Assembly: GCA_026415505.1 (NCBI GenBank)
Contig: JAOAGY010000010.1
Location: forward strand, 18-64,017
DNA length: 64,000 bases
DNA from: Chlorobiota bacterium
GTDB lineage: Bacteria > Bacteroidota > Ignavibacteria > Kapaibacteriales > NICIL-2
Direction of reading: 5' to 3'
The notes beneath the pieces are model-generated. The model was not told the DNA's origin, searched no databases, and worked only from the letters and a program-made list of their open reading frames with translations. A program made the position numbers and the translations under genes. Shown here one piece after another: positions 48,943 to 64,000 of this stretch. Positions within the stretch are counted from its first letter, which is position 1. Every line of letters starts with the position of its first letter.

Positions 48943-48947
48943 CGCTG

Positions 48948-48980
48948 TTTGCAAAATCGAGGGTACGCACCGTATTTTTG
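48948..48980 (+). promoter_or_regulatory. Bacteroidota-type primary-sigma promoter of the str operon
   Basis: TTTG (48948-48951)-N21-TATTTTTG (48973-48980), matching the -33/-7 consensus. Confidence 0.7.
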
Positions 48981-49046: not shown

Positions 49047-49436
49047 ATGCCAACGATCGCTCAGTTGATTCGGAAGGGTCGTCAAAAGCCCTTCAATAAG
49101 TCGAAGTCGCCGGCGCTGATGGGTTGCCCGCAGCGGCGAGGTGTCTGTACGCGGGTGTACACGACCACGCCGAAGAAACCGAACTCGGCGTTGCGGAAGG
49201 TTGCCCGCGTGCGGTTGACCAACGGTATCGAAGTGACCGCCTACATCCCCGGCGAAGGGCACAACCTCCAAGAACACAGCATCGTGCTCGTTCGCGGCGG
49301 TCGGGTCAAGGACTTGCCTGGCGTGCGCTATCATATTGTTCGCGGAACGCTCGATACACAGGGCGTCAACGGGCGCATGCAAGGGCGCTCCAAGTATGGC
49401 GCCAAGCGTCCAAAACAAGCTGCAGCTAAGAAGTAA
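49047..49436 (+). CDS. rpsL: 30S ribosomal protein S12
   Basis: [31 protein letters not shown]. Confidence 0.99.
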
Positions 49437-49978: not shown

Positions 49979-52054
49979 ATGGCTCGGCGGTTCGATATTC
50001 GGCGTGTGCGCAACATCGGAATCATGGCGCATATAGACGCCGGCAAAACCACGACGACCGAGCGCATCCTGTTCTATACCGGTATGGCGCATCGGCTCGG
50101 TGAAGTGCACGAAGGCACCACGATCACCGACTACATGGCGCAGGAGCGTGAGCGTGGCATCACGATTACCTCGGCGGCGGTGTCGTGTACATGGCGCGAT
50201 CACCGAATCACGATCATCGATACGCCAGGGCACGTCGATTTCACTGCCGAAGTCCAGCGATCCCTCCGTGTACTCGATGGCGCTATCGCTCTTTTTTCCG
50301 CCGTCGAGGGCGTCGAGCCACAATCGGAGACCGTGTGGCATCAAGCCGACCAATACCGAGTGCCGCGCATTGCCTACATCAACAAGATGGACCGTGTCGG
50401 TGCGGATTTTTCGCGAGCGGTCCAGTCCATCGCCGATAAACTCGGCGCCAATCCGATACCGGTACAATTGCCGCTCGGCATGGAAGAGCAGTTCGCCGGT
50501 GTCATTGATCTGATTGCGATGCGCGCGATCGTTTTCGACGAAGCCTCACTCGGCACGCGATACAATGCGGTCGAAATTCCCGATGCGTTCCGATCGGCAG
50601 CAGAAACAGCGCATGCCGCAATGGTCGAGCGCATCGTCGAACTCGACGACCGCCTGATGGAGCAGTATCTCGATGGCGTCGAGCCGACTGCCGAGCAGCT
50701 CAAAGCCGCGCTACGGACGGCGACGATTCAGCTCCGTGCCGTGCCGGTACTCTGCGGCTCGTCGTATCGCAACAAAGGCGTACAGCAGTTGCTCGATGCA
50801 GTGGTAGATTATTTGCCATCGCCGCTCGATGTCGGTGCCGCCGTCGGGTACGATCCCAGCGATCCCTCGCGTCTGCTGCAACGTCAGCCGCTCGACGACG
50901 AGCCACTGTCGGCACTGGCGTTCAAGGTGGTCGCCGATCGGCATGCGGGACGGCTGGTATTTGTGCGGCTCTACTCGGGATCGCTCCAGCCGGGTCAGAC
51001 TGTGCTGAATGTCTCGACAGGCAAGCGCGAGCGCGTGCAGAAAATCCTGCACATGCAAGCAGATCGGCGTGAGGAAATTCCGGAAGCGTTCGCCGGCGAC
51101 ATCGTTGCTATACCCGGACTGCGTGCGCGAACAGGCGAGACGATCGCCGATCAGAAACATCCGATCGTGTTCGAGCGAATCGAGTTCGTCGAGCCAGTGA
51201 TCGTTCAAGCGATTGAGGCGCGGACGACAGCCGACCAAGACAAACTCGCTGCTGCACTGGCTGCGCTCGCTGACGAAGACCCGACGTTTCGATATTCGAC
51301 CGACCCCGAATCGGGACAGCTCGTTATCAGTGGCGTCGGTGAGTTGCACCTGGAAATTATCGTCGATCGTTTGGCGCGTGAGTTCGGCGTTCCGGTGCGT
51401 GTCGGCAAGCCGCAGGTCGCTTATCGCGAGACGATCACACACACTGCCCGGAAGCACGGACACTTCGAGCGCATGCAGGGACCGAAAGTCTTCGTTGCCG
51501 ATGTCGAAGTCGAAGTCGGTCCGGCGCCGAGCGGTAGCGGATTCGTCTTCAGCGACGATCGCCCGCTCGAGGAGCGACAGTATCTGCCGGTCGAGTGCAT
51601 CCGTTCGATCGAAGACGGCGCGCGCGAGACGCTCATCGCCGGTCCGATCATGGGTTATCCGCTCATTGATATTGCTGTTCGTCTCCTGTCAGCCAGGAGT
51701 GGCGAAACTGAGCCGAACGATATCGCGTTTCGTGTCGCCACGTCGCTTGCGCTGCGCGAGGCATATCGCGAGGCAAGCCCGGTGCTTATGGAGCCGATAA
51801 TGTCGCTGGAAGTGACGACGCCGGATGAGTTCATCGGCGATGTCATTGCCGATATCAACAGCCGGCGAGGTCGAATCGAACAGATCGAGCAGCGCGGTGT
51901 CGTCACGCTCGTTCGAGCTACAGTGCCGTTGGCAGCGATGTTCGGTTACGTCACCCAGTTGCGGTCGCTGACCCAAGGGCGCGGGGCGTACACGATGTCG
52001 TTCTCGCACTATGAACCGGCAGTCGTCTCGACAATGCATCAATCGTACGCATAG
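49979..52054 (+). CDS. fusA: Elongation factor G family GTPase with a divergent domain IV (EF-G2-like)
   Basis: AHIDAGKTT, RGITI, DTPGHVDF, NKMD; str-operon position; domain IV loops non-canonical. Confidence 0.9.
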   Translation: MARRFDIRRVRNIGIMAHIDAGKTTTTERILFYTGMAHRLGEVHEGTTITDYMAQERERGITITSAAVSCTWRDHRITIIDTPGHVDFTAEVQRSLRVLDGAIALFSAVEGVEPQSETVWHQADQYRVPRIAYINKMDRVGADFSRAVQSIADKLGANPIPVQLPLGMEEQFAGVIDLIAMRAIVFDEASLGTRYNAVEIPDAFRSAAETAHAAMVERIVELDDRLMEQYLDGVEPTAEQLKAALRTATIQLRAVPVLCGSSYRNKGVQQLLDAVVDYLPSPLDVGAAVGYDPSDPSRLLQRQPLDDEPLSALAFKVVADRHAGRLVFVRLYSGSLQPGQTVLNVSTGKRERVQKILHMQADRREEIPEAFAGDIVAIPGLRARTGETIADQKHPIVFERIEFVEPVIVQAIEARTTADQDKLAAALAALADEDPTFRYSTDPESGQLVISGVGELHLEIIVDRLAREFGVPVRVGKPQVAYRETITHTARKHGHFERMQGPKVFVADVEVEVGPAPSGSGFVFSDDRPLEERQYLPVECIRSIEDGARETLIAGPIMGYPLIDIAVRLLSARSGETEPNDIAFRVATSLALREAYREASPVLMEPIMSLEVTTPDEFIGDVIADINSRRGRIEQIEQRGVVTLVRATVPLAAMFGYVTQLRSLTQGRGAYTMSFSHYEPAVVSTMHQSYA

Positions 52055-52096
52055 CATTCGTTCTTCATTGTTCCACAGTTCCTGTTCGGAGGTTTT

Positions 52097-53305
52097 ATGG
52101 CAAAAGAAAAATTCGTTCGCACCAAGCCCCACGTGAACGTGGGAACGATCGGTCACGTGGACCATGGCAAAACCACGCTGACAGCAGCCATTACATATGC
52201 ACTGGCACGGAAGTACCCGTCGGTGCAAGCGCGCGCTTACGACCAAATCGACAATGCTCCGGAAGAGCGCCAGCGCGGTATTACCATCAACACGGCTCAC
52301 GTCGAATACGAGACCGAAAAGCGGCACTACGCGCACGTTGATTGCCCGGGTCATGCCGACTACATCAAAAACATGATCACCGGTGCTGCGCAGATGGACG
52401 GTGCGATCTTGGTCGTCGCTGCCAACGATGGTCCGATGGCGCAAACGCGCGAGCACATCCTCTTGGCTCGCCAGGTTGGGGTGCCGCGGATCGTGGTGTT
52501 CCTCAACAAAGTGGATATCGCCGATCCGGAGCTGCTCGACCTGGTCGAAGAAGAAGTGCGCGACCTCCTCAAGAAATACGACTTCCCGGGCGATGAAATC
52601 CCGGTTATCCGCGGCTCGGCGCTCCAAGCACTCGATGCTGGTATGAGCGGTGCTCCGCTCGATGACCCGCGCTTCCAGTGCATTTGGGACCTGATGGACG
52701 CTGTCGATAACTACATTCCCACGCCACAGCGTGATGTTGACAAGCCCTTCTTGATGCCCGTCGAAGACGTCTTCTCGATCACCGGTCGCGGAACCGTCGG
52801 CACAGGTCGTGTCGAGCGCGGTATCGTGCGGCTCAACGACGAAGTCGAGATCGTCGGTTTTGGCTTGCACAAAAAGTCCACGGTCACTGGCATCGAAATG
52901 TTTCGCAAGCTGCTCGATGAAGCACAAGCTGGCGATAACATCGGATTGCTTCTGCGCGGTGTCGAAAAAGACGAGCTCGAGCGCGGGATGGTCATCGCCA
53001 AGCCCGGCACCATTACGCCGCACCGCAAGTTCATGGCGCAAGTTTACGTCCTGACCGCCGACGAGGGCGGACGGAAGACGCCGTTCTTCAGTGGCTATCG
53101 CCCGCAGTTTTACTTCCGAACGACCGACGTGACAGGAACGATTCAACTGCCGGAAGGCGTCGAGATGGTCATGCCCGGCGACAACGTGGACAACTTGACC
53201 ATCGAACTGATCACGCCGGTGGCGATGGAAGAAGGTCTCCGCTTCGCTATCCGCGAAGGCGGGCGCACTGTCGGTGCCGGTGTCGTCACGAAAATTCTCG
53301 ACTGA
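52097..53305 (+). CDS. tuf: Elongation factor Tu
   Basis: [28 protein letters not shown]. Confidence 0.99.
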
Positions 53306-53343
53306 TCAGCGCAGGAAGTTTCACTATCGTGGTTGGAAGCGTC

Positions 53344-53652
53344 GTGGCAACCCAACGCATTCGTATCAAGCTCCGCTCCTACGATCACAACTTGATTGAC
53401 AAGTCAGCCGAGCGGATCGTGCAGACTGTCAAGCTGACGGGTGCGACCGTCTCCGGTCCGATCCCGTTGCCAACGGAGCGCTCGGTTGTGACGGTCAATC
53501 GTTCCCCGCACGTGGACAAAAAATCGCGCGAGCAGTTCGAAACGCGTGTCCACAAACGGCTCATTGACATTTTCAGCTCGACGCCGAAGACCATCGATGA
53601 ATTGACCAAGCTGGATATTCCAGCAGGCGTTGACGTCGAAATCAAAGTGTAG
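53344..53652 (+). CDS. rpsJ: 30S ribosomal protein S10
   Basis: [21 protein letters not shown]; GTG start. Confidence 0.98.
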
Positions 53653-53671
53653 GCTATACCCAGAGGAAACG

Positions 53672-54289
53672 ATGGCAGCATTGCTCGGTCGAAAACTCGG
53701 CATGACGTCGTTCATCACCGAAAGTGGTGAATACGTTCCGTGTACGGTCATCGAAGCGGGTCCATGCCCGGTCGTTCTGCGCCGGACGCTCGAACGCGAT
53801 GGCTACGAAGCGGTTCAGATCGGCTTCGATCCGGTCCCCGAACGTAAGGTCAATCGTCCGCTCAAAGGACACTTCGCCAAAGCCGGTGTGGCGCCGCATC
53901 GTTACTTGCGCGAGTTCCGCGGCATCGAAGCATCGGTCGGCGACGTGCTTACTGTCGAGCAATTTGCCGCAGGCGACCGCGTGAAAGTGTCGGCGACCAG
54001 TATAGGGCGTGGTTTCCAAGGTGTCGTCAAGCGGCATCACTTCGGTGGCGTCGGTTTGGCGACTCACGGGCAGAGCGACCGCACGCGAGCGCCAGGTTCG
54101 ATCGGCGCATCGTCGTTCCCGTCGCGAGTATTCCCCGGCATGCGGATGGCTGGTCGTATGGGCGGGCGCCGCGCGACAATTCGCAACTTGGAAATTCTCC
54201 GAGTGATTCCGGAGGACAATCTGCTGCTGGTCAAAGGCAGCATACCGGGTGCGCCGAATACGTTGGTCGAAATTGTCAAACTTTCGTAA
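53672..54289 (+). CDS. rplC: 50S ribosomal protein L3
   Basis: GRKLGMT, GRGFQGVVKRH, RAPGSIG. Confidence 0.98.
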   Translation: MAALLGRKLGMTSFITESGEYVPCTVIEAGPCPVVLRRTLERDGYEAVQIGFDPVPERKVNRPLKGHFAKAGVAPHRYLREFRGIEASVGDVLTVEQFAAGDRVKVSATSIGRGFQGVVKRHHFGGVGLATHGQSDRTRAPGSIGASSFPSRVFPGMRMAGRMGGRRATIRNLEILRVIPEDNLLLVKGSIPGAPNTLVEIVKLS

Positions 54290-54362
54290 TCGCGGACGCA
54301 GGTTGTCGTCCGGTTGGTAAACGTCGGCGAAAACGCAATACTCACACGCATCAGAATCGGAA

Positions 54363-55016
54363 ATGAACGTTCCGTTGCTATCACAAACCGGCGAGCAGAA
54401 GGGCACCATCGAATTGCCCGATGCCGTCTTCAACATCGAACCGCACGAACACTCGATGTACTTAGCGGTGCGAGCGTATCTGGCGCATCAGCGTCAGGGT
54501 ACGCACAAAACCAAGACGCGGCAGGAGGTCTCCGGCGGCGGTCGCAAACCGTGGCGTCAAAAGGGTCGTGGTACTGCGCGGGCTGGCTCGATCCGATCGC
54601 CCTTGTGGGTCGGCGGTGGTACAGTCTTCGGTCCACAGCCGCACGCGTACACCGTCACGGTGCCAAAGAAAGTCAGTCAGCTGGCTCGGCGGTCGGCGCT
54701 GTCCTGCCGTGCCCAGGAGGGCAACATCATTGTTGTCGAGAGCATCGAGCTGGAACAACCAAAAACCAAGCTGATGGCAGCGGTCATGAAGGCGCTCGGC
54801 GTGGAAGGAACCAAAACACTGCTCCTTGTCGATCGCTTCGATCCGACGGTACTTCGTGCCGGGCGCAATTTGCCGTACCTCGATATGATGCTCGCCGACA
54901 AGGTCTCGACGTACCACATCTTGAGCCATCGGAAGCTTATTCTCGTGCCCGGTGCGATCGAGACGCTGGTGCGTGTTCTGTCGCCGAAAGCAACGACTGA
55001 AGAGATGACGACATGA
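54363..55016 (+). CDS. rplD: 50S ribosomal protein L4
   Basis: RQGTHKTK, KPWRQKGRGTARAGS. Confidence 0.98.
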   Translation: MNVPLLSQTGEQKGTIELPDAVFNIEPHEHSMYLAVRAYLAHQRQGTHKTKTRQEVSGGGRKPWRQKGRGTARAGSIRSPLWVGGGTVFGPQPHAYTVTVPKKVSQLARRSALSCRAQEGNIIVVESIELEQPKTKLMAAVMKALGVEGTKTLLLVDRFDPTVLRAGRNLPYLDMMLADKVSTYHILSHRKLILVPGAIETLVRVLSPKATTEEMTT

Positions 55017-55321
55017 TCCAGATCATCAAGCGACCCATTCTGACGGAAAAGTCGGAGAAAGTCAAAGGCATTCACAATCATTACGTCTTCGAGGTTGACC
55101 GCAGCGCCAACAAAATCGAAATCAAACAAGCCGTTGAGGCGATGTTCGGCGTGCAGGTCGAAAAAGTGCGTACCGTGACTGTCCGCGGCAAACGGAGAAT
55201 TCGCTACACGCGCCGTGGACTCCAAGAAGGACGCACCCGAACGTGGAAAAAAGCATACGTTCGGCTCAAGCCAGGCTTCTCGATCGACGTCGTCAGCGGC
55301 GAAGGTGAAACTAACGATTGA
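55013..55321 (+). CDS. rplW: 50S ribosomal protein L23
   Basis: PILTEK, ANKIEIK, WKKAYV. Confidence 0.98.
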   Translation: MIQIIKRPILTEKSEKVKGIHNHYVFEVDRSANKIEIKQAVEAMFGVQVEKVRTVTVRGKRRIRYTRRGLQEGRTRTWKKAYVRLKPGFSIDVVSGEGETND

Positions 55322-55331
55322 CCGATGAACA

Positions 55332-56171
55332 ATGCCACTGCGTCAACTCAAACCGATAACACCCGGCACGCGGTTTTACTCGGTCAGTGATTTCAGCGAA
55401 CTGACTACCGACCGTCCGTACAAACCGTTGTGCGAGCCGCTCCCTTCGACCGGTGGTCGAAACAACACCGGGCGGATCACTTCGCGGCATCGTGGCGGTC
55501 GCCACAAGCGACTCTACCGTATCATTGATTTCAAGCGCGACAAAACGGACGTCTTCGCGACGGTCGAGACGATCGAGTACGATCCGAACCGCTCATGCCG
55601 CATTGCACTGGTACGGTACGACGACGGCGAGCGGCGATACATTCTCGCGCCGCAAGGTCTCAAAGTCGGCGATCGCATCGTCTCGAGCGACCATGCCGAA
55701 TACAACGTCGGCAACACGCTCCCGTTGGCGAAGATACCTCCCGGTCTTTTCGTGCACAACATCGAGCTAAAGCCAGGTAAGGGCGGTCAGCTCGTTCGGA
55801 GTGCAGGTTTGGGTGCGCAGCTTCTCGGTTTCGATGGCAAGTATGCTCAACTCAAATTGCCGTCGGGCGAAATCCGAATGGTCTTAGCCCAGTGCAAGGC
55901 TACGATCGGTGTGTTGAGCAATGCCGATCATGAAAACATCCTGCTCGGCAAGGCAGGTCGTGCACGGTGGCTCGGTATTCGTCCGCAAACACGCGGCATG
56001 GCGATGAACCCAATCGATCACCCTAACGGTGGTGGCGAAGGTCGCTCCAAGTCGGGCGGAGGACGTCAACATCCACGATCGCCGTGGGGACAACTGGCCA
56101 AAGGTCTGAAAACGCGCAAAAAGCATAAAGCATCCGATCGGCTCATCATTCGACGTCGAACCAAGAACTAA
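55332..56171 (+). CDS. rplB: 50S ribosomal protein L2
   Basis: [25 protein letters not shown]. Confidence 0.99.
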
Positions 56172-56179
56172 CACTGGTC

Positions 56180-56464
56180 ATGGCACGATCGCTCAAAAAA
56201 GGCGTCTTCGTTTACTACAAGCTCCGCAAAAAAGTCGAGCAGCTCAATGCGAGCGGTAGAAAGCAAGTTATCAAAACATGGAGCCGTGCCTCGACGATCA
56301 TTCCGGAGTTCGTCGGGCATACATTCGCTGTGCACAACGGCAGCAAGTTCATTCCGGTGTACGTGACCGAGAACATGGTCGGGCACAAGCTCGGCGAGTT
56401 CGCTCCGACGCGGACATTCCGCGGTCACGCTGGACACCGCAAAGAAGACAAAGCCAAAAAGTAA
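56180..56464 (+). CDS. rpsS: 30S ribosomal protein S19
   Basis: RSLKKG, KTWSR, GHKLGEF. Confidence 0.99.
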
Positions 56465-56482
56465 ACATCACAGATTGGACCG

Positions 56483-56827
56483 ATGGAAGCACGAGCAATT
56501 GCACGTCATGTTCGTTCCTCGCCGCGGAAGATGCGCATTGTGGTTGACTTGATCCGCGGTAAGAGCGCTGCTGATGCGCTGGCGATATTGCGCATGACCA
56601 AAAAGCGCGCCTCCCATGTTGCGGAGATGACGCTGCGGTCGGCAATTGCCAATCTGCAGGCTAAGGCGGACAATCCCTACCTGGCGCCGGAAAACGTCGT
56701 CGTGCAGAGCGCCTACGTGGACAACGGTCCGATGCTCAAGCGGATTCAACCGGCGCCGATGGGACGCGCCTATCGAGTTCGAAAGCGATCGCATCATTTG
56801 ACAATTGTTGTAGCAATGAAGGACTAA
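56483..56827 (+). CDS. rplV: 50S ribosomal protein L22
   Basis: SPRKMR, DLIRGK, KRIQPAPMGRA. Confidence 0.98.
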   Translation: MEARAIARHVRSSPRKMRIVVDLIRGKSAADALAILRMTKKRASHVAEMTLRSAIANLQAKADNPYLAPENVVVQSAYVDNGPMLKRIQPAPMGRAYRVRKRSHHLTIVVAMKD

Positions 56828-56833
56828 CTGGCT

Positions 56834-57472
56834 GTGGGTCAGAAAACAAATCCTATCGGTTTGCGGGTCGGCATCATTCGTGGATGGGACTCCAATTGGT
56901 TCGAGCGGTCGAGCTTTCACCAAAAGCTCAGCGAGGACATCATGCTGCGCAATTACTTGCGTAGCAGGCTCAAGAAAGCCAACGTCTCGCGCATCGTTAT
57001 TGACCGCACACCGAAGCGAATCATGGTGACCATCCACACGTCGCGTCCGGGTGTTGTCATCGGGCGATCGGGAAAAGATGTCGAGCAGCTCGAAGGCGAA
57101 TTGAGCAAATTGACCGGCAGCGACGTCTCGATCACCATTCATGAAATCAAACGCCCCGAGCTCGATGCGCAAATTGTCGCCGACACGATCGCACAGCAGC
57201 TCGAAGGACGAATTGCGTTCCGTCGCGCGATGAAACAAGCTGTCGCCGCCGCGATGCGGATGGGTGCCGAGGGTATCCGCGTCATGTGCGCTGGTCGGCT
57301 CGGCGGTGCTGAAATGTCGCGTACCGAACAGTACAAGGAAGGACGCGTACCGCTCCATACGTTGCGTGCCGATATTGACTATGCAACGGCGACGGCGCAG
57401 ACGGTCTATGGCTCGATCGGCGTCAAGGTGTGGATTTGCAAAGGCGAAATCATCGGCAAACAGTCGGACTAA
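56834..57472 (+). CDS. rpsC: 30S ribosomal protein S3
   Basis: [29 protein letters not shown]; GTG start. Confidence 0.99.
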
Positions 57473-57546
57473 GTCGGCTGCTGCACCACAAGGTGCTGCG
57501 CGTGTATATCGCACGACGAAAAAGCTAACAATCGGAGTTTATAGTC

Positions 57547-57969
57547 ATGCTGCTGCCCAAACGGGTCAAACATCGAAAAGTCCAGCGCGGTCGCCGTAAA
57601 GGCAAAGCCTATCGCGGTTCACAGGTCGCTTTCGGCGCATACGGACTGAAAGCGCTCGAAGCAGCCTGGATTACCAATCGCCAGATCGAAGCCGCGCGGA
57701 TCGCGATCAACCGCCACCTCAAACGCGATGGGAAAGTGTGGATTCGCATTTTTCCCGACAAGCCCTTTACCAAGAAACCGCTCGAAGTGCGGATGGGATC
57801 GGGGAAGGGCAATCCTGAAGGCTGGGTCGCGGTCGTCAAGCCGGGACGAATACTGTTCGAAGTTGACGGTGTCTCCAAAGAAGCCGCATTGGAGGCGCTC
57901 CGTCTGGCATCGCACAAACTCCCGATCAAAACGAAAATCGTCGCACGTCTCGATTTGGTCGAAGCATGA
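57547..57969 (+). CDS. rplP: 50S ribosomal protein L16
   Basis: QIEAAR, RIFPDKP, RMGSGKG. Confidence 0.99.
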
Positions 57970-58169
57970 AACCACGTAAAGCACGCGATTTGCGCGAATT
58001 GAACGATCACGACTTGCTGGCAGCGTTGCGCGAAGCCGAAGAGACGCTCGCAAAACAGCGCTTCCAACACGCGCTCAAACAGTTGCAGGACAGTGCATAC
58101 TTGCGTATTCTGCGCAAGGATATTGCGCGTATGAAAACGATTCTTCACGAACGAAATATCCGAGTGTAA
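57966..58169 (+). CDS. rpmC: 50S ribosomal protein L29
   Basis: RKDIARMKT; operon position. Confidence 0.97.
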
Positions 58170-58172
58170 GCG

Positions 58173-58481
58173 ATGGACGAGCAGCAAACAGTAGATGCGA
58201 CCACGCTATCCGAAGCGTCCGCCGAGCACGAGCGTCGCGGTCGGAAAATCCGTCAAGGCGTGGTCGTTTCCAACAAAATGGACAAGACCATCGTCGTCGC
58301 CGTTGAGCGGCAAGTGATGCATCCGCTCTACAAGCGGTACTACAAGCGGACGAAAAAATACATGGCGCACGACGAACACAATCAGTGCGCAATCGGCGAC
58401 GTTGTCCGCATCGTCGAGTCTCGTCCGCTCAGTCGCCGCAAGCGCTGGATGCTGCTCGAGGTCGTCCAGCGTGCACGCTGA
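58173..58481 (+). CDS. rpsQ: 30S ribosomal protein S17
   Basis: [25 protein letters not shown]. Confidence 0.98.
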
Positions 58482-58519
58482 TCGAAAAACCGAACATTTT
58501 CACGACGGAGGAAACGCCC

Positions 58520-58885
58520 ATGATTCAAGAAGAAACCAATCTCGTCGTCGCCGACAATTCCGGCGCAAAACGTGTCCGCTGCATTCGTGTGCTCGGCGGG
58601 CATGACAAGCGCTATGCCACCGTCGGCGATGTGATCGTCGTGTCGGTCAAAGCGGCGATGCCCAACGGCGCCGTCAAAAAAGGCGATGTCGTCAAAGCCG
58701 TTGTGGTTCGGACCAAAAAGGAAATTCGTCGTCGCGATGGCTCGTTTGTTCGCTTCGATGAAAACGCAGCGGTGTTGCTCAACAACCAGCTCGAGCCACG
58801 TGGGACGCGGATCTTCGGTCCGGTCGCCCGTGAACTGCGCGAAAAATTCATGAAGATCATTTCACTGGCGCCCGAGGTCGTGTAG
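58520..58885 (+). CDS. rplN: 50S ribosomal protein L14
   Basis: [22 protein letters not shown]; GGAGG RBS. Confidence 0.99.
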
Positions 58886-58907
58886 TCGAATGCTCACTGC
58901 AAATGCG

Positions 58908-59168
58908 ATGAAACTCAAAATCAAAAAAGGCGACACTGTCGTCGTCATTGCTGGCAACGACAAAGGCAAAACAGGACGCGTCATCGCTGTCTATCCGAAG
59001 CGAATGCGAGTGCTTGTCGAGGGTGTCAACGTTCGCAAAAAACACGTTCGCCCCTCGCCAGCATATCCGCAAGGCGGTATCGTCTCGAAAGAAATGCCGA
59101 TTCACTACTCGAACGTCATGCTTGTCGGACCAGACGGCAAACCGACGCGCAAACGTCCGACGCCATAA
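58908..59168 (+). CDS. rplX: 50S ribosomal protein L24 (short form)
   Basis: [23 protein letters not shown]. Confidence 0.97.
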
Positions 59169-59226
59169 TCACGGTGTGTGCACAACGACGTACACACGAA
59201 GTCGAATTTCTCGCTGAACTGCTCCT

Positions 59227-59853
59227 ATGGCAAAGCAACAACTGAAAAAGCTCGAGTTCAAGTACGAAGGTCCGCGGCTGGAGGATGTCTCCGCTGTTGA
59301 AATCCCGGTTCCGCGGCTGCAGGTGTATTACCGTGAAACGGTTGTGCCGAACCTGATGAAGCGGTTCGGATACACGTCCGTCATGCAGGTACCTCGACTG
59401 GTGAAAATATCGCTCAACATGGGTGTGGGCGATGGAGCGCAAGACGTCAAGCAAATCCAAAACGCTCTCAACGAGCTGGAGCTGATCGCAGGACAGCGTC
59501 CAGCCGTAGCGCGTGCCAAGCGTTCGATCGCCAACTTCAAATTGCGGCAAGGTCAACCGATCGGGGTGCATGTCACGCTCCGTCGTGGGCGGATGTACGA
59601 ATTCCTCGACCGTTTCATCAACATTGCAGCGCCACGTATTCGTGACTTTCGCGGCTTCCCCGACAAGTCATTCGATGGACGCGGTAATTACACCGTCGGA
59701 GTCAAGGAGCAGATCATTTTTCCGGAAATCGACGTGGACAAAGTGGACCGCATTCGTGGTCTCGATATAACGTTCGTCACCAGCGCCAAAACCGACGAAG
59801 AAGCATATGCGCTGTTGGCTGAGTTCGGTTTTCCGTTCCGCAGAAAAGACTGA
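59227..59853 (+). CDS. rplE: 50S ribosomal protein L5 (N-terminal extension)
   Basis: [32 protein letters not shown]. Confidence 0.98.
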
Positions 59854-59878
59854 AACTCTCACTCTTCGAGAATGAAGT

Positions 59879-60148
59879 ATGGCTACCGATGCCGTCGTTG
59901 CCCGTAATCGCAAGCGTCAGCGCCTGGCAGAAAAGTACGCTGCCAAACGTGCTGCCCTCAAAAAAGCAGGCGATTACGAGGCACTGCAAAAGCTGCCGCG
60001 AAACAGTAACCCCGTCCGTGTGCGCAACCGGTGCTCGGTAACCGGGCGCGGTCGGGGTGTGTATCGGCGGTTTATGCTCTGCCGCAATATGCTGCGGCAA
60101 TTGGCTCTGGAAGGCAAAATTCCGGGTCTGCGAAAAGCCAGTTGGTAA
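59879..60148 (+). CDS. rpsN: 30S ribosomal protein S14 (89-aa form)
   Basis: [23 protein letters not shown]. Confidence 0.98.
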
Positions 60149-60217
60149 TCGGCTGTCGCCACGGTGTATCGAAAATGGTGGCGATGCCGTATTTTCGCGT
60201 TCCTTTCTGCTACTCGT

Positions 60218-60296
60218 GTGCCGACGCATCAGGTAACCGTGGCGCCTGAGATGGTCGGTGCTGTTGTCTGCAAAACGCTCTTGCGTGCAGACCAAC
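60218..60296 (+). ncRNA. Candidate structured rpsH leader (S8-binding helix 21 mimic plus second hairpin)
   Basis: Stem 60218-60261 with a helix-21-like internal loop; second stem 60263-60296; see findings. Confidence 0.5.
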
Positions 60297-60339
60297 GAAC
60301 GTAAAGTCCACGATGTACGATCAATTGCCATAGCAACGC

Positions 60340-60741
60340 ATGCCTGTGACCGATGCAATCGGCGATTTCCTAACGCGGATTCGCAACGCGCAGCGAGCGC
60401 ACCATCGCACTGTGGATGCACCGGCATCGAAGCTCAAAGTCGCTATCGCCGAGATTCTCAAAGACCAGGGCTATATCGCCGATTACGAACTTCTCGATGG
60501 CGACGGTAGCGCTCAACCGACGCTGCGCGTGCACCTGAAGTACTATCAAGGTCAGCCCGTCATTCGCGAAATTCGGCGCATCAGCAAACCCGGTCTCCGC
60601 CGGTATGCGGGCGCCGACGAACTCCCGCGTGTCTATAACGGGCTGGGGATCGCGATCCTTTCGACGTCGAAAGGTGTCGTGACCGATAAACATGCTCGTC
60701 GGCTCAATGTCGGCGGCGAAATCATTTGCACAGTGTGGTAA
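60340..60741 (+). CDS. rpsH: 30S ribosomal protein S8
   Basis: DFLTRIRN, ISKPGLRRY, GLGIAILSTSKG, GGEI. Confidence 0.99.
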   Translation: MPVTDAIGDFLTRIRNAQRAHHRTVDAPASKLKVAIAEILKDQGYIADYELLDGDGSAQPTLRVHLKYYQGQPVIREIRRISKPGLRRYAGADELPRVYNGLGIAILSTSKGVVTDKHARRLNVGGEIICTVW

Positions 60742-60760
60742 CATTTTCTCTTCAGTAGCT

Positions 60761-61300
60761 GTGTCACGAGTCGGTCGCAAACCAGTCGAGATTCCAGCGG
60801 GCGTGACTGTCGTGCTCGAAGGTAACGTGCTCAGAGCAAAAGGTCCGCTCGGAGAACAAAGTCTGACAATTCCGGATGGCATTGCATGCCAGCGCGAGGG
60901 CAACCAGTTGGTATTTACGCGCGCCAATGATGAAAAGCATCTCCGCGCCCTGCATGGTACCACCCGCGCATTGGTAGCGAATATGCTCGCCGGTGTCAGT
61001 AAAGGTTTTGAAAAGCAGCTCGAATTGCAGGGCGTCGGGTACAAAGCAGAACTGCGCGGAAAAAATCTGGTGCTCTCGCTCGGATACTCCCATCCGGTCG
61101 TTTTTGTACCGCCGGATGGGGTGCAAATCCTTGTCCCAAGCCCGACGCAGGTATCGGTCAAAGGTTCCGATCGGCAACTGGTCGGGCAAATCGCAGCCGT
61201 CATTCGGAAGGTTCGCCCACCGGAACCCTACAAAGGGAAAGGTATCCGGTATGTCGGTGAATACGTCCGTCGAAAGGCTGGGAAAGCAGCTGGCAAGTAG
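60761..61300 (+). CDS. rplF: 50S ribosomal protein L6
   Basis: SRVGRKP, GVGYKA, PPEPYKGKGIRY; GTG start. Confidence 0.98.
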   Translation: MSRVGRKPVEIPAGVTVVLEGNVLRAKGPLGEQSLTIPDGIACQREGNQLVFTRANDEKHLRALHGTTRALVANMLAGVSKGFEKQLELQGVGYKAELRGKNLVLSLGYSHPVVFVPPDGVQILVPSPTQVSVKGSDRQLVGQIAAVIRKVRPPEPYKGKGIRYVGEYVRRKAGKAAGK

Positions 61301-61333
61301 CGGATAGATCACACCAACGCACGTAACGAAACG

Positions 61334-61696
61334 ATGATCGTCAATCACAAACTCGAACGTCGCAGTCGGCGGAAAAAAGGTATCCGCAAAAAAATTCGCG
61401 GCACGCCCGAGCGTCCCCGCTTGAGCGTCTTTCGGTCGCTCAAGCACATCTATGCGCAGATCATTGACGATACAGCCGGACGGACGCTGGCGAGCGCGTC
61501 GTCGCTCGATAAGGAGTTGTCGGTCGAGAACGGCGCTCGCAAACTCGACGTCAGCCGTGCTGTCGGTCGTTTGTTGGCACAGCGAGCTGTCGCAGCAGGT
61601 GTCAGTGCGGTCGCTTTCGATCGCAATGGTTTCCTCTATCACGGTAGAGTCCGCGCACTCGCCGAGGGCGCCCGTGAGGGCGGATTGCAGTTTTAG
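61334..61696 (+). CDS. rplR: 50S ribosomal protein L18
   Basis: [21 protein letters not shown]. Confidence 0.98.
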
Positions 61697-61720
61697 TAGT
61701 CAAACGTTCCCAACCCCGTC

Positions 61721-62224
61721 ATGGCACGAGCGAAAGTCTCGCAATTGAACTTGAACGATAAACTCGTCAGTGTCTCTCGGACAGCGAAAGTCGTCAAAGG
61801 CGGTCGCCGCTTTAGCTTTTCGGCGCTGGTGGTCGTCGGCGATGGGCAGGGTCACGTCGGCTACGGTTTAGGGAAAGCCGGCGAAGTCGTCGATGCTGTC
61901 CAGAAAGCGACCGAAGCAGCGAAAAAGAATGTCGTGCACGTGCAACTGCATGGTTCGACGATCCCGCACGAAGTTTTTGCCAAGTACGGTGCGGCAAAAG
62001 TGCTGCTTCGTCCGGCTGCGCCCGGTACCGGTATCATCGCTGCAGGCGGGGTACGGGCTGTCCTCGAAATGGTCGGCGTTCATGACGTGTTGACGAAATC
62101 GCTCGGTTCGTCCAATCCGCACAACGTTATCAAAGCGACGATCCGCGCGCTCGAACAGCTCGAAGACGTCACATCCGTCGCCGCACGGCGAGGTATCTCG
62201 GTCGAAAAAGTGCTCAACGGCTAA
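61721..62224 (+). CDS. rpsE: 30S ribosomal protein S5
   Basis: [28 protein letters not shown]. Confidence 0.99.
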
Positions 62225-62235
62225 TGTCGGTAGCT

Positions 62236-62442
62236 ATGGCAAAAATTCGCATCACACAGATTCGCAGCGTCATTGACTCGAAAGAGCAGCACAAACGAAT
62301 CATCCGTGCGCTCGGACTCGGACGCCCGAAGTACTGGGTCGTTCACAACGATACACCGCAAATACGCGGTATGATAGCGAAGGTCTCGCATCTGGTGCGC
62401 GTCGAAGAACTTTCCAACGGTACCCATGAAGCACATCGGTAA
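62236..62442 (+). CDS. rpmD: 50S ribosomal protein L30
   Basis: ITQIRSVI, ALGL, IRGMIAKVSHLV. Confidence 0.96.
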   Translation: MAKIRITQIRSVIDSKEQHKRIIRALGLGRPKYWVVHNDTPQIRGMIAKVSHLVRVEELSNGTHEAHR

Positions 62443-62884
62443 TCTTTCGTATGCTCCGCGATCGCGCAAAGCGCGCAAGCGAATCGGACGCGGCGAAGGC
62501 TCCGGTCACGGTGGCACTTCCACGCGCGGACACAAAGGGCATCAGTCCCGCGGTAATCATCGCTACAAACGGAACTTCGAGGGTGGGCAGATGCCCTTGT
62601 CGCGCCGCATCCCGAAGTTCGGCTTCGTCAATGTGTTCCGCACCGAATATCAAGTGATCAACGTCGGACGACTCGACGAACTGGCGCGAGAGGGACGCAT
62701 CGGGACAGAGGTCACGCCGGAAACGCTCTACCGCGTCGGCGCGATCTCCAACCGAAACGTGCCTGTCAAAATTCTGGGCGATGGAGAGCTGACAGTTGCA
62801 CTTGCAGTTACGGCACAGAGTTTTTCGACATCGGCGAAGGAAAAAATCCTCGCCGCCGGCGGTCGTTGTACGGTCAGCGAGTAG
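62426..62884 (+). CDS. rplO: 50S ribosomal protein L15
   Basis: RIGRGEGSG, RGHKG, FEGGQMPL, KILGDG. Confidence 0.98.
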   Translation: MKHIGNLSYAPRSRKARKRIGRGEGSGHGGTSTRGHKGHQSRGNHRYKRNFEGGQMPLSRRIPKFGFVNVFRTEYQVINVGRLDELAREGRIGTEVTPETLYRVGAISNRNVPVKILGDGELTVALAVTAQSFSTSAKEKILAAGGRCTVSE

Positions 62885-62920
62885 TAGTTTCGCCAGTAGC
62901 GTTACATCTTTTCAGCATTC

Positions 62921-64000
62921 ATGGCAACGGTCATCGAGACAGTCCGCAACATCTTTCGCATCGAAGAGCTTCGTCAGCGCATCGTGTTCACTGTGCTGAT
63001 GCTCGTCGTGGTGCGGATCGGAGCGCACATCACGATCCCCGGCATAAACATCGAGGCGCTCAAAGCTTCGACGGCGACGAGCGATCCGAACAATCTGTTC
63101 GGACTCTACGATCTGTTCGTCGGTGGTGCCTTTCACAACGCCGCGATATTCGCGATGGGAATTATGCCGTACATTTCGGCATCCATCATCTTACAGCTTG
63201 CCGGCGTATTCGTGCCGGAGCTGATGAAGCTTCAGCGCGAAGGTGAAGAAGGGCGCCGCAAGATCAACCAGTGGACGCGCTACCTGACCGTTTTTGTTGC
63301 TGCCATGCAAGCGATCGGGCTGAGCATCAAGCTCACAGCCACCACCTCTGGCGTCAGTGGCGGTTCGATCGTCGTCGAACCGGGACTTCTCTTTACGTTG
63401 ACGGCAGTAGCGACGATGACCGCCGGAACGATCTTCCTCATGTGGATCGGCGAGCAAATTACCGAACGCGGTATCGGCAATGGTATCTCGCTCATTATCT
63501 TCATCGGCATCATCTCACGGCTTCCGGTCGCGATCCAAAACGAGCTGCAACTGATCAGTGCCGGTGCCCGCAACTGGGTCGTGGATTTGATCTTGGTGGC
63601 ATTCCTCGGCGTGATTGTAGCGCTCGTCGTCCTGGTGACGCAAGGCGCACGACGCATTCCGATTCAGTACGCCAAGCGCATCGAAGGACGCAAGCAGTAC
63701 GGTGGGCATACGACGTACATCCCGCTGCGTGTCAACACCGCCGGTGTGATGCCGATCATTTTCGCCTCGGCGATTTTGTTCATTCCGAACACGATCCTGA
63801 GCTTTTTCCCAGAAAATCAAACGCTCATCAACATCGCGCATTTATTCAGCGACCGTTCGGTTCTCCATGCGGTGCTGTACGCGGCGCTGATCATCTTTTT
63901 CACGTACTTCTACACGGCGATTGCGTTCAATCCGCGCCAAGTTGCCGATGACCTGAAACGAGCGCAAGGATTCATACCGGGTGTACGCCCTGGCAATCCA
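62921..64000 (+). CDS. secY: Preprotein translocase SecY (runs off the window end)
   Basis: Manual translation from ATG 62921: MATVIETVRNIFRIEELRQRIVFT...IFAMGIMPYISASII...GIGNGISLIIF...GVMPIIFA...FIPGVRPG. Confidence 0.97.
   Translation, partial: MATVIETVRNIFRIEELRQRIVFTVLMLVVVRIGAHITIPGINIEALKASTATSDPNNLFGLYDLFVGGAFHNAAIFAMGIMPYISASIILQLAGVFVPELMKLQREGEEGRRKINQWTRYLTVFVAAMQAIGLSIKLTATTSGVSGGSIVVEPGLLFTLTAVATMTAGTIFLMWIGEQITERGIGNGISLIIFIGIISRLPVAIQNELQLISAGARNWVVDLILVAFLGVIVALVVLVTQGARRIPIQYAKRIEGRKQYGGHTTYIPLRVNTAGVMPIIFASAILFIPNTILSFFPENQTLINIAHLFSDRSVLHAVLYAALIIFFTYFYTAIAFNPRQVADDLKRAQGFIPGVRPGNP

Follow-up and report, generated by a model that had tools for sequence, protein, structure and literature searches.

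The 191-nt spacer between rpsN and rpsH in the window (the whole stretch of 64,000 nucleotides analysed here) contains a helix that, among the genomes searched, is found in one Kapabacteria family and solely in front of rpsH. We regard this element as real: a family-restricted, covarying mimic of helix 21 of 16S rRNA, located in the predicted 5' UTR of a unit led by rpsH. As judged from sequence comparison, it is most probably an S8 autoregulatory operator of this rpsH-led unit, with an origin independent of the E. coli operator at rplE, and S8 very probably uses the leader to limit its own synthesis. The combined reading, i.e. a lineage-specific S8 autoregulatory leader with its own promoter, a helix-21 mimic and lowered translation of rpsH, appears likely to us. 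That it is moreover an independent S8 operator which is the first to be defined by covariation outside the Gammaproteobacteria, with a dedicated promoter and a pseudoknot that blocks the 30S subunit without a Shine-Dalgarno sequence, seems about an even chance. A first-pass annotation of this DNA had put forward a candidate S8-sensing leader for rpsH and the genes behind it, and this candidate now has comparative support, as the element stands always and only before rpsH.

The spacer extends from the stop codon of rpsN, which ends at 60148, to the start of rpsH at 60340. The rpsN gene (S14, 89 aa; 59879–60148, plus strand; ORF table, and tblastn against relatives) would be the final gene of the upstream unit, while rpsH (S8, 133 aa; 60340–60741, plus strand; ORF table) would be the first regulated gene and encode the proposed ligand; 3' of rpsH lie rplF, rplR, rpsE, rpmD, rplO and secY. 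In the ribosomal protein cluster from rplD to secY (54363–62921) the rpsN–rpsH spacer is the longest, as all others measure at most 74 nt in the ORF table; the second-longest is the 74-nt gap between rpsC and rplP (57473–57546). The spacer features and pairings listed in the first-pass annotation were found to be placed correctly to the base. The S8 protein itself is ordinary, matching solved S8 chains with an E-value of 7e-44, and its translation shows by eye the Ser-Thr-Ser motif, as LSTSKG, and the aromatic Tyr in RRY. No Shine-Dalgarno-like sequence is evident before rpsH on inspection of the sequence. Two open reading frames that overlap the spacer, one of 46 aa (60164–60304) and an antisense one of 216 aa (59777–60427), were dismissed because the length and sequence of the spacer vary freely in relatives. 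Comparison of 59850–60750 with one metatranscriptome from the same study, which contains hardly any of the sequence words, gave a single 47-nt piece, which lies in rpsH, is less than 90% alike and stems from another organism.

Three hairpins are predicted in the spacer by RNAfold, at 60150–60189, 60218–60261 and 60262–60297. The second of these is the S8-site helix (44 nt, plus strand), which was delineated by RNAfold, by covariation and by mapping through the Rfam SSU alignment. Its lower stem is formed by 60218–60225 and 60254–60261, and the upper stem extends to the pair G60233–C60245. In the numbering of 16S rRNA, the core between them consists of the bulged G60226 (595), the pairs C60227–G60253 (596–644) and A60228–U60252 (597–643), the unpaired G60250 and A60251 (641 and 642), and the pairs U60229–A60249 (598–640) and C60230–G60248 (599–639). 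The internal loop therefore has three unpaired nucleotides (G60226, G60250 and A60251), an odd number. The base-by-base mapping onto the S8 site that had been drawn up earlier is in keeping with how the lineage's own 16S rRNA aligns to Rfam SSU. Region 60210–60300 folds with a z-score of -3.36, none of 200 dinucleotide shuffles folding as well, and the spacer as a whole has a z-score of -2.31. RNAfold leaves C60227–G60253 and A60228–U60252 unpaired, and these two pairs rest on covariation in relatives.

In a tblastn search, 97 loci with both S14 and S8 could be identified, in 22 of which the gap between the two genes exceeds 100 nt. All of these long-gap loci except one (21 of 22) belong to the family of the window, i.e. 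to its genera g1 to g4, the exception being a gammaproteobacterial MAG without the motif; in the remaining 75 loci the rpsN–rpsH gap is 14–58 nt, stop codon included. The long spacers can hardly be aligned as DNA even within a genus, yet one helix is common to all. The sequences that were compared derive from 17 related species and two metagenome variants. In a MAFFT alignment of 15 sequences, which was not fitted to the structure and for which the structure was written by hand, 93.8% of the cells pair. The first-pass annotation had named an alignment of related spacers as the way to look for covariation, and in this alignment compensatory changes on both sides occur in 12 of the 15 helix pairs. 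The covariation score was reached by none of 500 shuffles, and sliding the partner by one to three columns reduced pairing to 21–37%. With the two metagenome variants added (17 distinct rows, model-fitted alignment) pairing was 94.5%, again with compensatory changes in 12 of 15 pairs; as the species are related, the number of events is smaller than the number of cells counted. The upper stem illustrates this variation, occurring as CAGG/CCUG, CAAGG/CCUUG, CGAGG/CCUCG and CACGG/CCGUG, and further as CGAA/UUCG, CGGA/UCCG and CAGAC/GUCUG. Also in these 17 distinct sequences, the 597–643 pair is A-U in nine and G-C in eight.

A covariance model of the helix, R1, gave exactly one match in each of 16 of the 17 genomes of the family; in the other one (G004) the contig with rpsH begins 96 nt upstream of the gene. 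In each of the 14 distinct family genomes checked by tblastn, the match falls in the rpsN–rpsH spacer; for G014 and G015 (loci L016 and L017) the match coordinates lie between the tblastn-placed genes. None of 134 genomes from the ten other families of the order gave a match, nor did any of 149 genomes from outside the family that were sampled across the phylum; these large searches were run with the stricter filters of Infernal, at which a diverged form could be missed. Among metagenome contigs, the element was present in 3 of 80 loci with close S8 relatives, and one more locus is cut 15 nt upstream. This yielded one new variant (L124) and one new variant of the short form described below (L122).

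The internal loop is what identifies the helix as a likely copy of the S8 site. According to the Rfam SSU alignment, helix 21 of the lineage's own 16S rRNA has a core with bulged G595, C-G at 596–644, G-C at 597–643, U-A at 598–640, C-G at 599–639, and unpaired U641 and A642, and an identical core is present in five relatives from three genera (two others from g1, besides g3 and g4). In the leaders, 596–644 is C-G, 598–640 is U-A, 599–639 is C-G and 642 is an unpaired A in 18 out of 18 cases. At 595, 14 leaders have a bulged G and 4 a bulged A; 597–643 is G-C in 9 (g2 to g4) and A-U in 9 (the genus of the window); at 641, G occurs in 7 leaders, A in 5 and U in 6. In g2 to g4 the base at 641 is U or A, and in the genus of the window it is G or A. 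Every invariant nucleotide of the leader core is thus the one found in the organism's own 16S site, while the flanking stems drift, and in g3 the leader and the 16S site of the same lineage even have an 8-nt and a 7-nt strand in common. In four leaders (L008, L014, L016 and L017) an A-A mismatch adjoins the bulge. An internal loop not conserved in relatives had been named beforehand as a refuting outcome, and the invariant core positions are kept in 18 of 18 leaders. The proposed mimicry of helix 21 is supported by a core that is invariant and the same as in the lineage's own 16S rRNA, within a helix that covaries. The match of the core to the S8 site also held up, whereas C-G at 596–644, which the first-pass annotation took as a departure from E. 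coli, is no peculiarity of the leader, because the lineage's own 16S rRNA has C-G there too. R1 does not detect 16S helix 21, with filters off and E-values up to 1, owing to the long apical extension of the latter, so the likeness to 16S rRNA rests on the Rfam SSU alignment and not on a model score.

These features can be compared with structural work on S8 complexes, passages of which (PMC4176348) describe A642 as invariant and as the sole conserved base-specific contact of S8. The same passages describe a base triple with the form A595-(A596-U644) in E. coli and the form G595-(C596-G644) in T. thermophilus, and report that combinations isosteric with (G597-C643)-U641 are tolerated, that A642 can stack on the Ser-Thr-Ser peptide owing to an odd number of loop nucleotides, and that a Tyr contacts N2 of G597 in some S8 complexes. 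By sequence match, the leader of the window and the 16S rRNA of the same organism both have the triple form of T. thermophilus, G595-(C596-G644). A597 has no N2 group, which makes the Tyr contact impossible, and the affinity for S8 may consequently be lower or, at worst, lost. The leaders with A-U at 597–643 in the genus of the window may accordingly represent a weaker operator than the rRNA site.

The helix appears to lie on a transcript of its own. A predicted promoter -7 box, CCG-TATTTTCG-C, is located at 60187–60198 on the plus strand, with TATTTTCG itself at 60190–60197, and corresponds with one mismatch to TAnnTTTG, the Bacteroidetes-type -7 promoter consensus. The extended box CGTATTTTYG occurs exactly four times in the window (at 2845 and 23434 on the minus strand, and at 48971 and 60188), and 16 matches are found against 7.1 expected when one mismatch is allowed. 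One of these boxes precedes rpsL of the str operon (ATG at 49048), where CCGTATTTTTGC at 48971–48980 lies 69 nt upstream of the gene and is itself preceded, within 48946–48980, by TTTG at -33, 21 nt upstream of CCGTATTTTTGC. The succession TTTG, 21 nt, CCGTATTTTTGC is clearly the layout expected of a Bacteroidetes-type promoter, and the -7 box in the rpsH spacer is of the same type as this predicted rpsL promoter box. Of the 18 leaders, 17 retain TAnnTT[TC]G, which stands upstream of the helix at a distance of 14 to about 95 nt; for the g2 leader there is only a weak candidate for a -7 box. A scan for sigma-70 consensus promoters in 58800–61000 found none, which would follow from use of the Bacteroidetes-type box by this lineage. 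From the usual spacing to the -7 box, the 5' end is predicted at about 60201–60206, in a pyrimidine-rich stretch (TCCTTTC..., 60201–60217, plus strand). Such a pyrimidine-rich, TCCYTT-like start (60201–60207 in the window) is seen in nearly all leaders, as TCCTTTC, TCCCTTT, CCCTTAT, TTCCTG or similar.

The region directly behind rpsN may contribute to the separation. The strong RNAfold hairpin at 60150–60189 (plus strand) is followed by UAUUUU, and its DNA shares positions with the -35 region and the spacer of the putative internal promoter; hairpin and U-run may act as a leaky terminator on transcripts that read through from rpsN. A simple terminator scan called neither this hairpin nor the one of L013, as their loops exceed the limit of the scan. 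Genus g3 has a hairpin with a T-run behind rpsN; the scan calls it in L113 (G011), with 16 pairs, and it was recognized by eye in the rest. In three other long-form members of the window's genus there is no hairpin at the place of 60150–60189. Taken together, the comparisons support a cut of the spc cluster after rpsN and a unit led by rpsH with its own putative promoter. An internal promoter that splits the spc operon had been suspected from the window itself, and the -7 box in 17 of 18 related spacers and the apparent terminator after rpsN in g3 speak for it.

Between the helix and rpsH, the leaders occur in a long and a short form. In all 14 long forms the helix is directly followed by a second hairpin, P3 (60262–60297 in the window, plus strand; RNAfold and relatives), the sequences of which are variable and unrelated. 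The apical loop of the helix contains CGUGG (60238–60242, plus strand) in 14 of 14 long forms and in none of the 4 short forms. All 14 long forms also have the complementary CCACG (60308–60312 in the window, plus strand, 27 nt before the AUG), located 25–31 nt ahead of the start codon, and it is missing in all 4 short ones. The short forms (L004, L024, L028 and L122, all in genus g1) have spacers of 117–118 nt and are devoid of P3, CGUGG and CCACG; they keep the predicted promoter and an intact helix core, about 37 nt from the AUG. Since CGUGG and CCACG are complementary, the simplest reading is a pseudoknot between the loop and the downstream strand, a candidate that is suggested by the conservation, the complementarity and the joint loss of the two pentamers; covariation lends it no support, as neither of them ever varies. 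Neither this candidate pseudoknot nor the restriction of the element to one family had been noticed in the first-pass annotation. In genus g3 an outer helix, GUUCAA/UUGAAC, encloses the whole element in 7 of 7 leaders, its 3' strand lying 9–15 nt before the AUG, and in g2 AUUGAU and AUCAAU are seen by eye at the corresponding places. No outer helix is evident in the genus of the window or in g4, and the pairing of UCGU (60214–60217) with ACGA (60317–60320) was rejected as an outer helix of the window because it is not conserved. The folding energies of whole leaders are ordinary, with z-scores of -1.07 and -0.57.

The comparisons establish a conserved structure whose core equals that of the lineage's own 16S rRNA, together with its location and its distribution. 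From these data we infer that S8 binds, that a promoter and a 5' end lie in the spacer, that the pseudoknot forms and that translation is repressed, and we propose the following course of events. A Bacteroidetes-type promoter in the spacer would start a transcript, the 5' UTR of which folds into a helix with the S8 docking site, and S8 in excess over free 16S rRNA would bind to this helix. In the long form the CGUGG of the loop would pair with CCACG some 27 nt upstream of the AUG, and in g3 the outer helix would close over positions -15 to -9 as well. Bound S8 would lock this compact fold, and the resulting bulky complex of RNA and protein would sit at the 5' edge of where the ribosome lands. 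The S8-bound helix would come to lie about 25–37 nt upstream of the AUG, by way of the pseudoknot in the long form and directly in the short form; because the helix itself is 79–122 nt from the AUG in long forms, repression depends there on the candidate tertiary contact. Given the lack of an evident Shine-Dalgarno sequence in front of rpsH, we favour occlusion of 30S binding, be it steric or structural. Translation of rpsH would fall, and the closely spaced downstream genes would follow by coupling.

Parts of the data could also be accounted for in other ways. The promoter box and the terminator-like hairpins would be expected as well if there were only an operon break, made by a terminator and an internal promoter, with the helix as a generic 5' stabiliser or processing site that has no ribosomal protein as ligand and either protects the rpsH mRNA from RNases or serves as an RNase III site. 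Stem-loops at the 5' end are indeed common mRNA stabilisers. However, a stabilising hairpin has no need of an invariant asymmetric internal loop, and here seven invariant core nucleotides together with a bulged purine coincide with the S8 site of the organism's own 16S rRNA, while the surrounding stems vary freely and the element is found only before the gene of S8 itself; we therefore consider a mere operon break unlikely. The ligand might instead be L6, L18, S5, L30 or L15, or else an unrelated factor or metabolite, with the likeness to helix 21 being coincidental. CGUGG and CCACG are conserved outside the S8 site, and ligands of ribosomal protein leaders are often uncertain where several ribosomal protein genes follow, as noted by Eckert and Weinberg 2020 (PMC7247131). 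Yet it is rpsH that lies immediately downstream in every case, and the core matches the S8 site at one position after the other, with an equivalent of the invariant A642 among them, which makes another ligand very improbable.

S8 could also bind the leader with a different output, such as premature termination (e.g. Rho-dependent), mRNA decay or activation. RNAfold and the terminator scan found no intrinsic terminator between helix and AUG, which leaves room for Rho or decay. For activation, the start region would have to be freed from pairing with the beginning of the rpsH coding sequence: the 5' strand of the helix (60220–60233) can pair with codons 2–8 of rpsH (CCU GUG ACC GAU GCA AUC GGC, 60343–60361), and RNAfold prefers this pairing in the window once the coding start is included, which would invert the regulatory logic. 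The pairing beats shuffles (at most 0.035) in just 6 of 18 leaders; it is no better than shuffles in the other 12 and was rejected as not conserved. Also, positive feedback on a ribosomal protein is, to our knowledge, without precedent, and the constant position of CCACG 25–31 nt before the AUG, together with the g3 helix at -15 to -9, points to the start region, so that an output other than repression of translation seems quite improbable. The pairing with codons 2–8 partly reflects the likeness of the 3' strand of the helix to conserved coding sequence.

Autoregulation by S8, the reading favoured here, has a well-known counterpart. That S8 controls the spc operon is textbook knowledge, but this control is known only in Gammaproteobacteria. 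In the passages of Fu et al. 2013 that deal with it (PMC3616713), the gammaproteobacterial S8-interacting RNA is described only at rplE, and the title of that paper refers to its narrow spread in Gammaproteobacteria; a 2024 review (PMC10931766) states that regulation of spc in other species is unknown and that its phylogenetic study has not advanced. The E. coli operator at the start of rplE and the leader described here are alike in being mRNA copies of helix 21's internal loop, with S8 feedback a candidate function in the present case, and in having a conserved core between variable stems, as far as the spc operator is described in the corresponding passages (PMC3616713, PMC10931766). The two differ in location, since the spc operator shares nucleotides with the rplE start codon and coding sequence inside a continuous operon, whereas the Kapabacteria leader is a non-coding 5' UTR with its own predicted promoter, before rpsH and at least 79 nt from the AUG in its long form. 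The leader further differs in the G-(C-G) form of the triple, the added hairpin and the candidate pseudoknot. R1 has no match at rplE, there being one match per genome, and a search of 50000–64000 against Rfam 15 with E-values up to 10 gave no match to the leader and nothing at rplE; this search shows no sequence homology to the spc operator, and a match to isrG on the minus strand inside rpsN was put down to chance. Helix 21 of 16S rRNA shares with the leader the bulge at 595, the 596–644 pair, the unpaired 641 and A642, and the three unpaired nucleotides. It runs on into a long apical extension; the leader, by contrast, is capped by a loop of 9–11 nt after 4–5 pairs, and in the window's genus the leader differs from it by A-U at 597–643 and by G or A at 641.

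Similarities are also found to leaders of other ribosomal proteins. Leaders that mimic rRNA and came from comparative genomics, such as the 20 r-leaders of Eckert and Weinberg 2020 and the leaders of S15 and L20, are likewise, in the account given there (PMC7247131), lineage-restricted, covarying, rRNA-like and located before the gene of the ligand; Table 1 of that paper, with its 20 entries, names S8 as a ligand nowhere and has no leader in front of rpsH. The mycobacterial S15 leader, as outlined in the 2024 review (PMC10931766), resembles the present one by a pseudoknot upstream of the initiation site, and the bound pseudoknot is thought there to prevent ribosome binding and not to trap the ribosome. 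It differs in protein and fold, and the pseudoknot proposed here is derived from two invariant complementary pentamers. No S8 leader before rpsH was found in the full texts searched or in Table 1 of Eckert and Weinberg, and the first-pass annotation knew of no description of one either.

The leader offers a clean, small (44-nt) and testable candidate for an S8 operator, from a distant lineage in which start regions have no evident Shine-Dalgarno sequence. Its natural variants differ in the 597–643 pair (A-U or G-C), in the base at 641 (three kinds) and in the presence (long form) or absence (short form) of the candidate pseudoknot. They constitute a ready-made mutational series, of which the short form is a natural minimal version. 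If the proposed unit is correct, an operon layout regarded as near-universal can be re-cut such that the gene of the regulator leads a unit of its own.

The S8-core pattern is absent from the short spacers of other families (35–58 nt, 37 distinct sequences, some from other phyla). Many short spacers from other families of the order (L037–L062) have TTTTCGAACACGACCAACGACGACGA immediately before the ATG of rpsH. This start region with TTTTCGAACACGACCAACGACGACGA is conserved across different families and is unstructured, i.e. not a hairpin.
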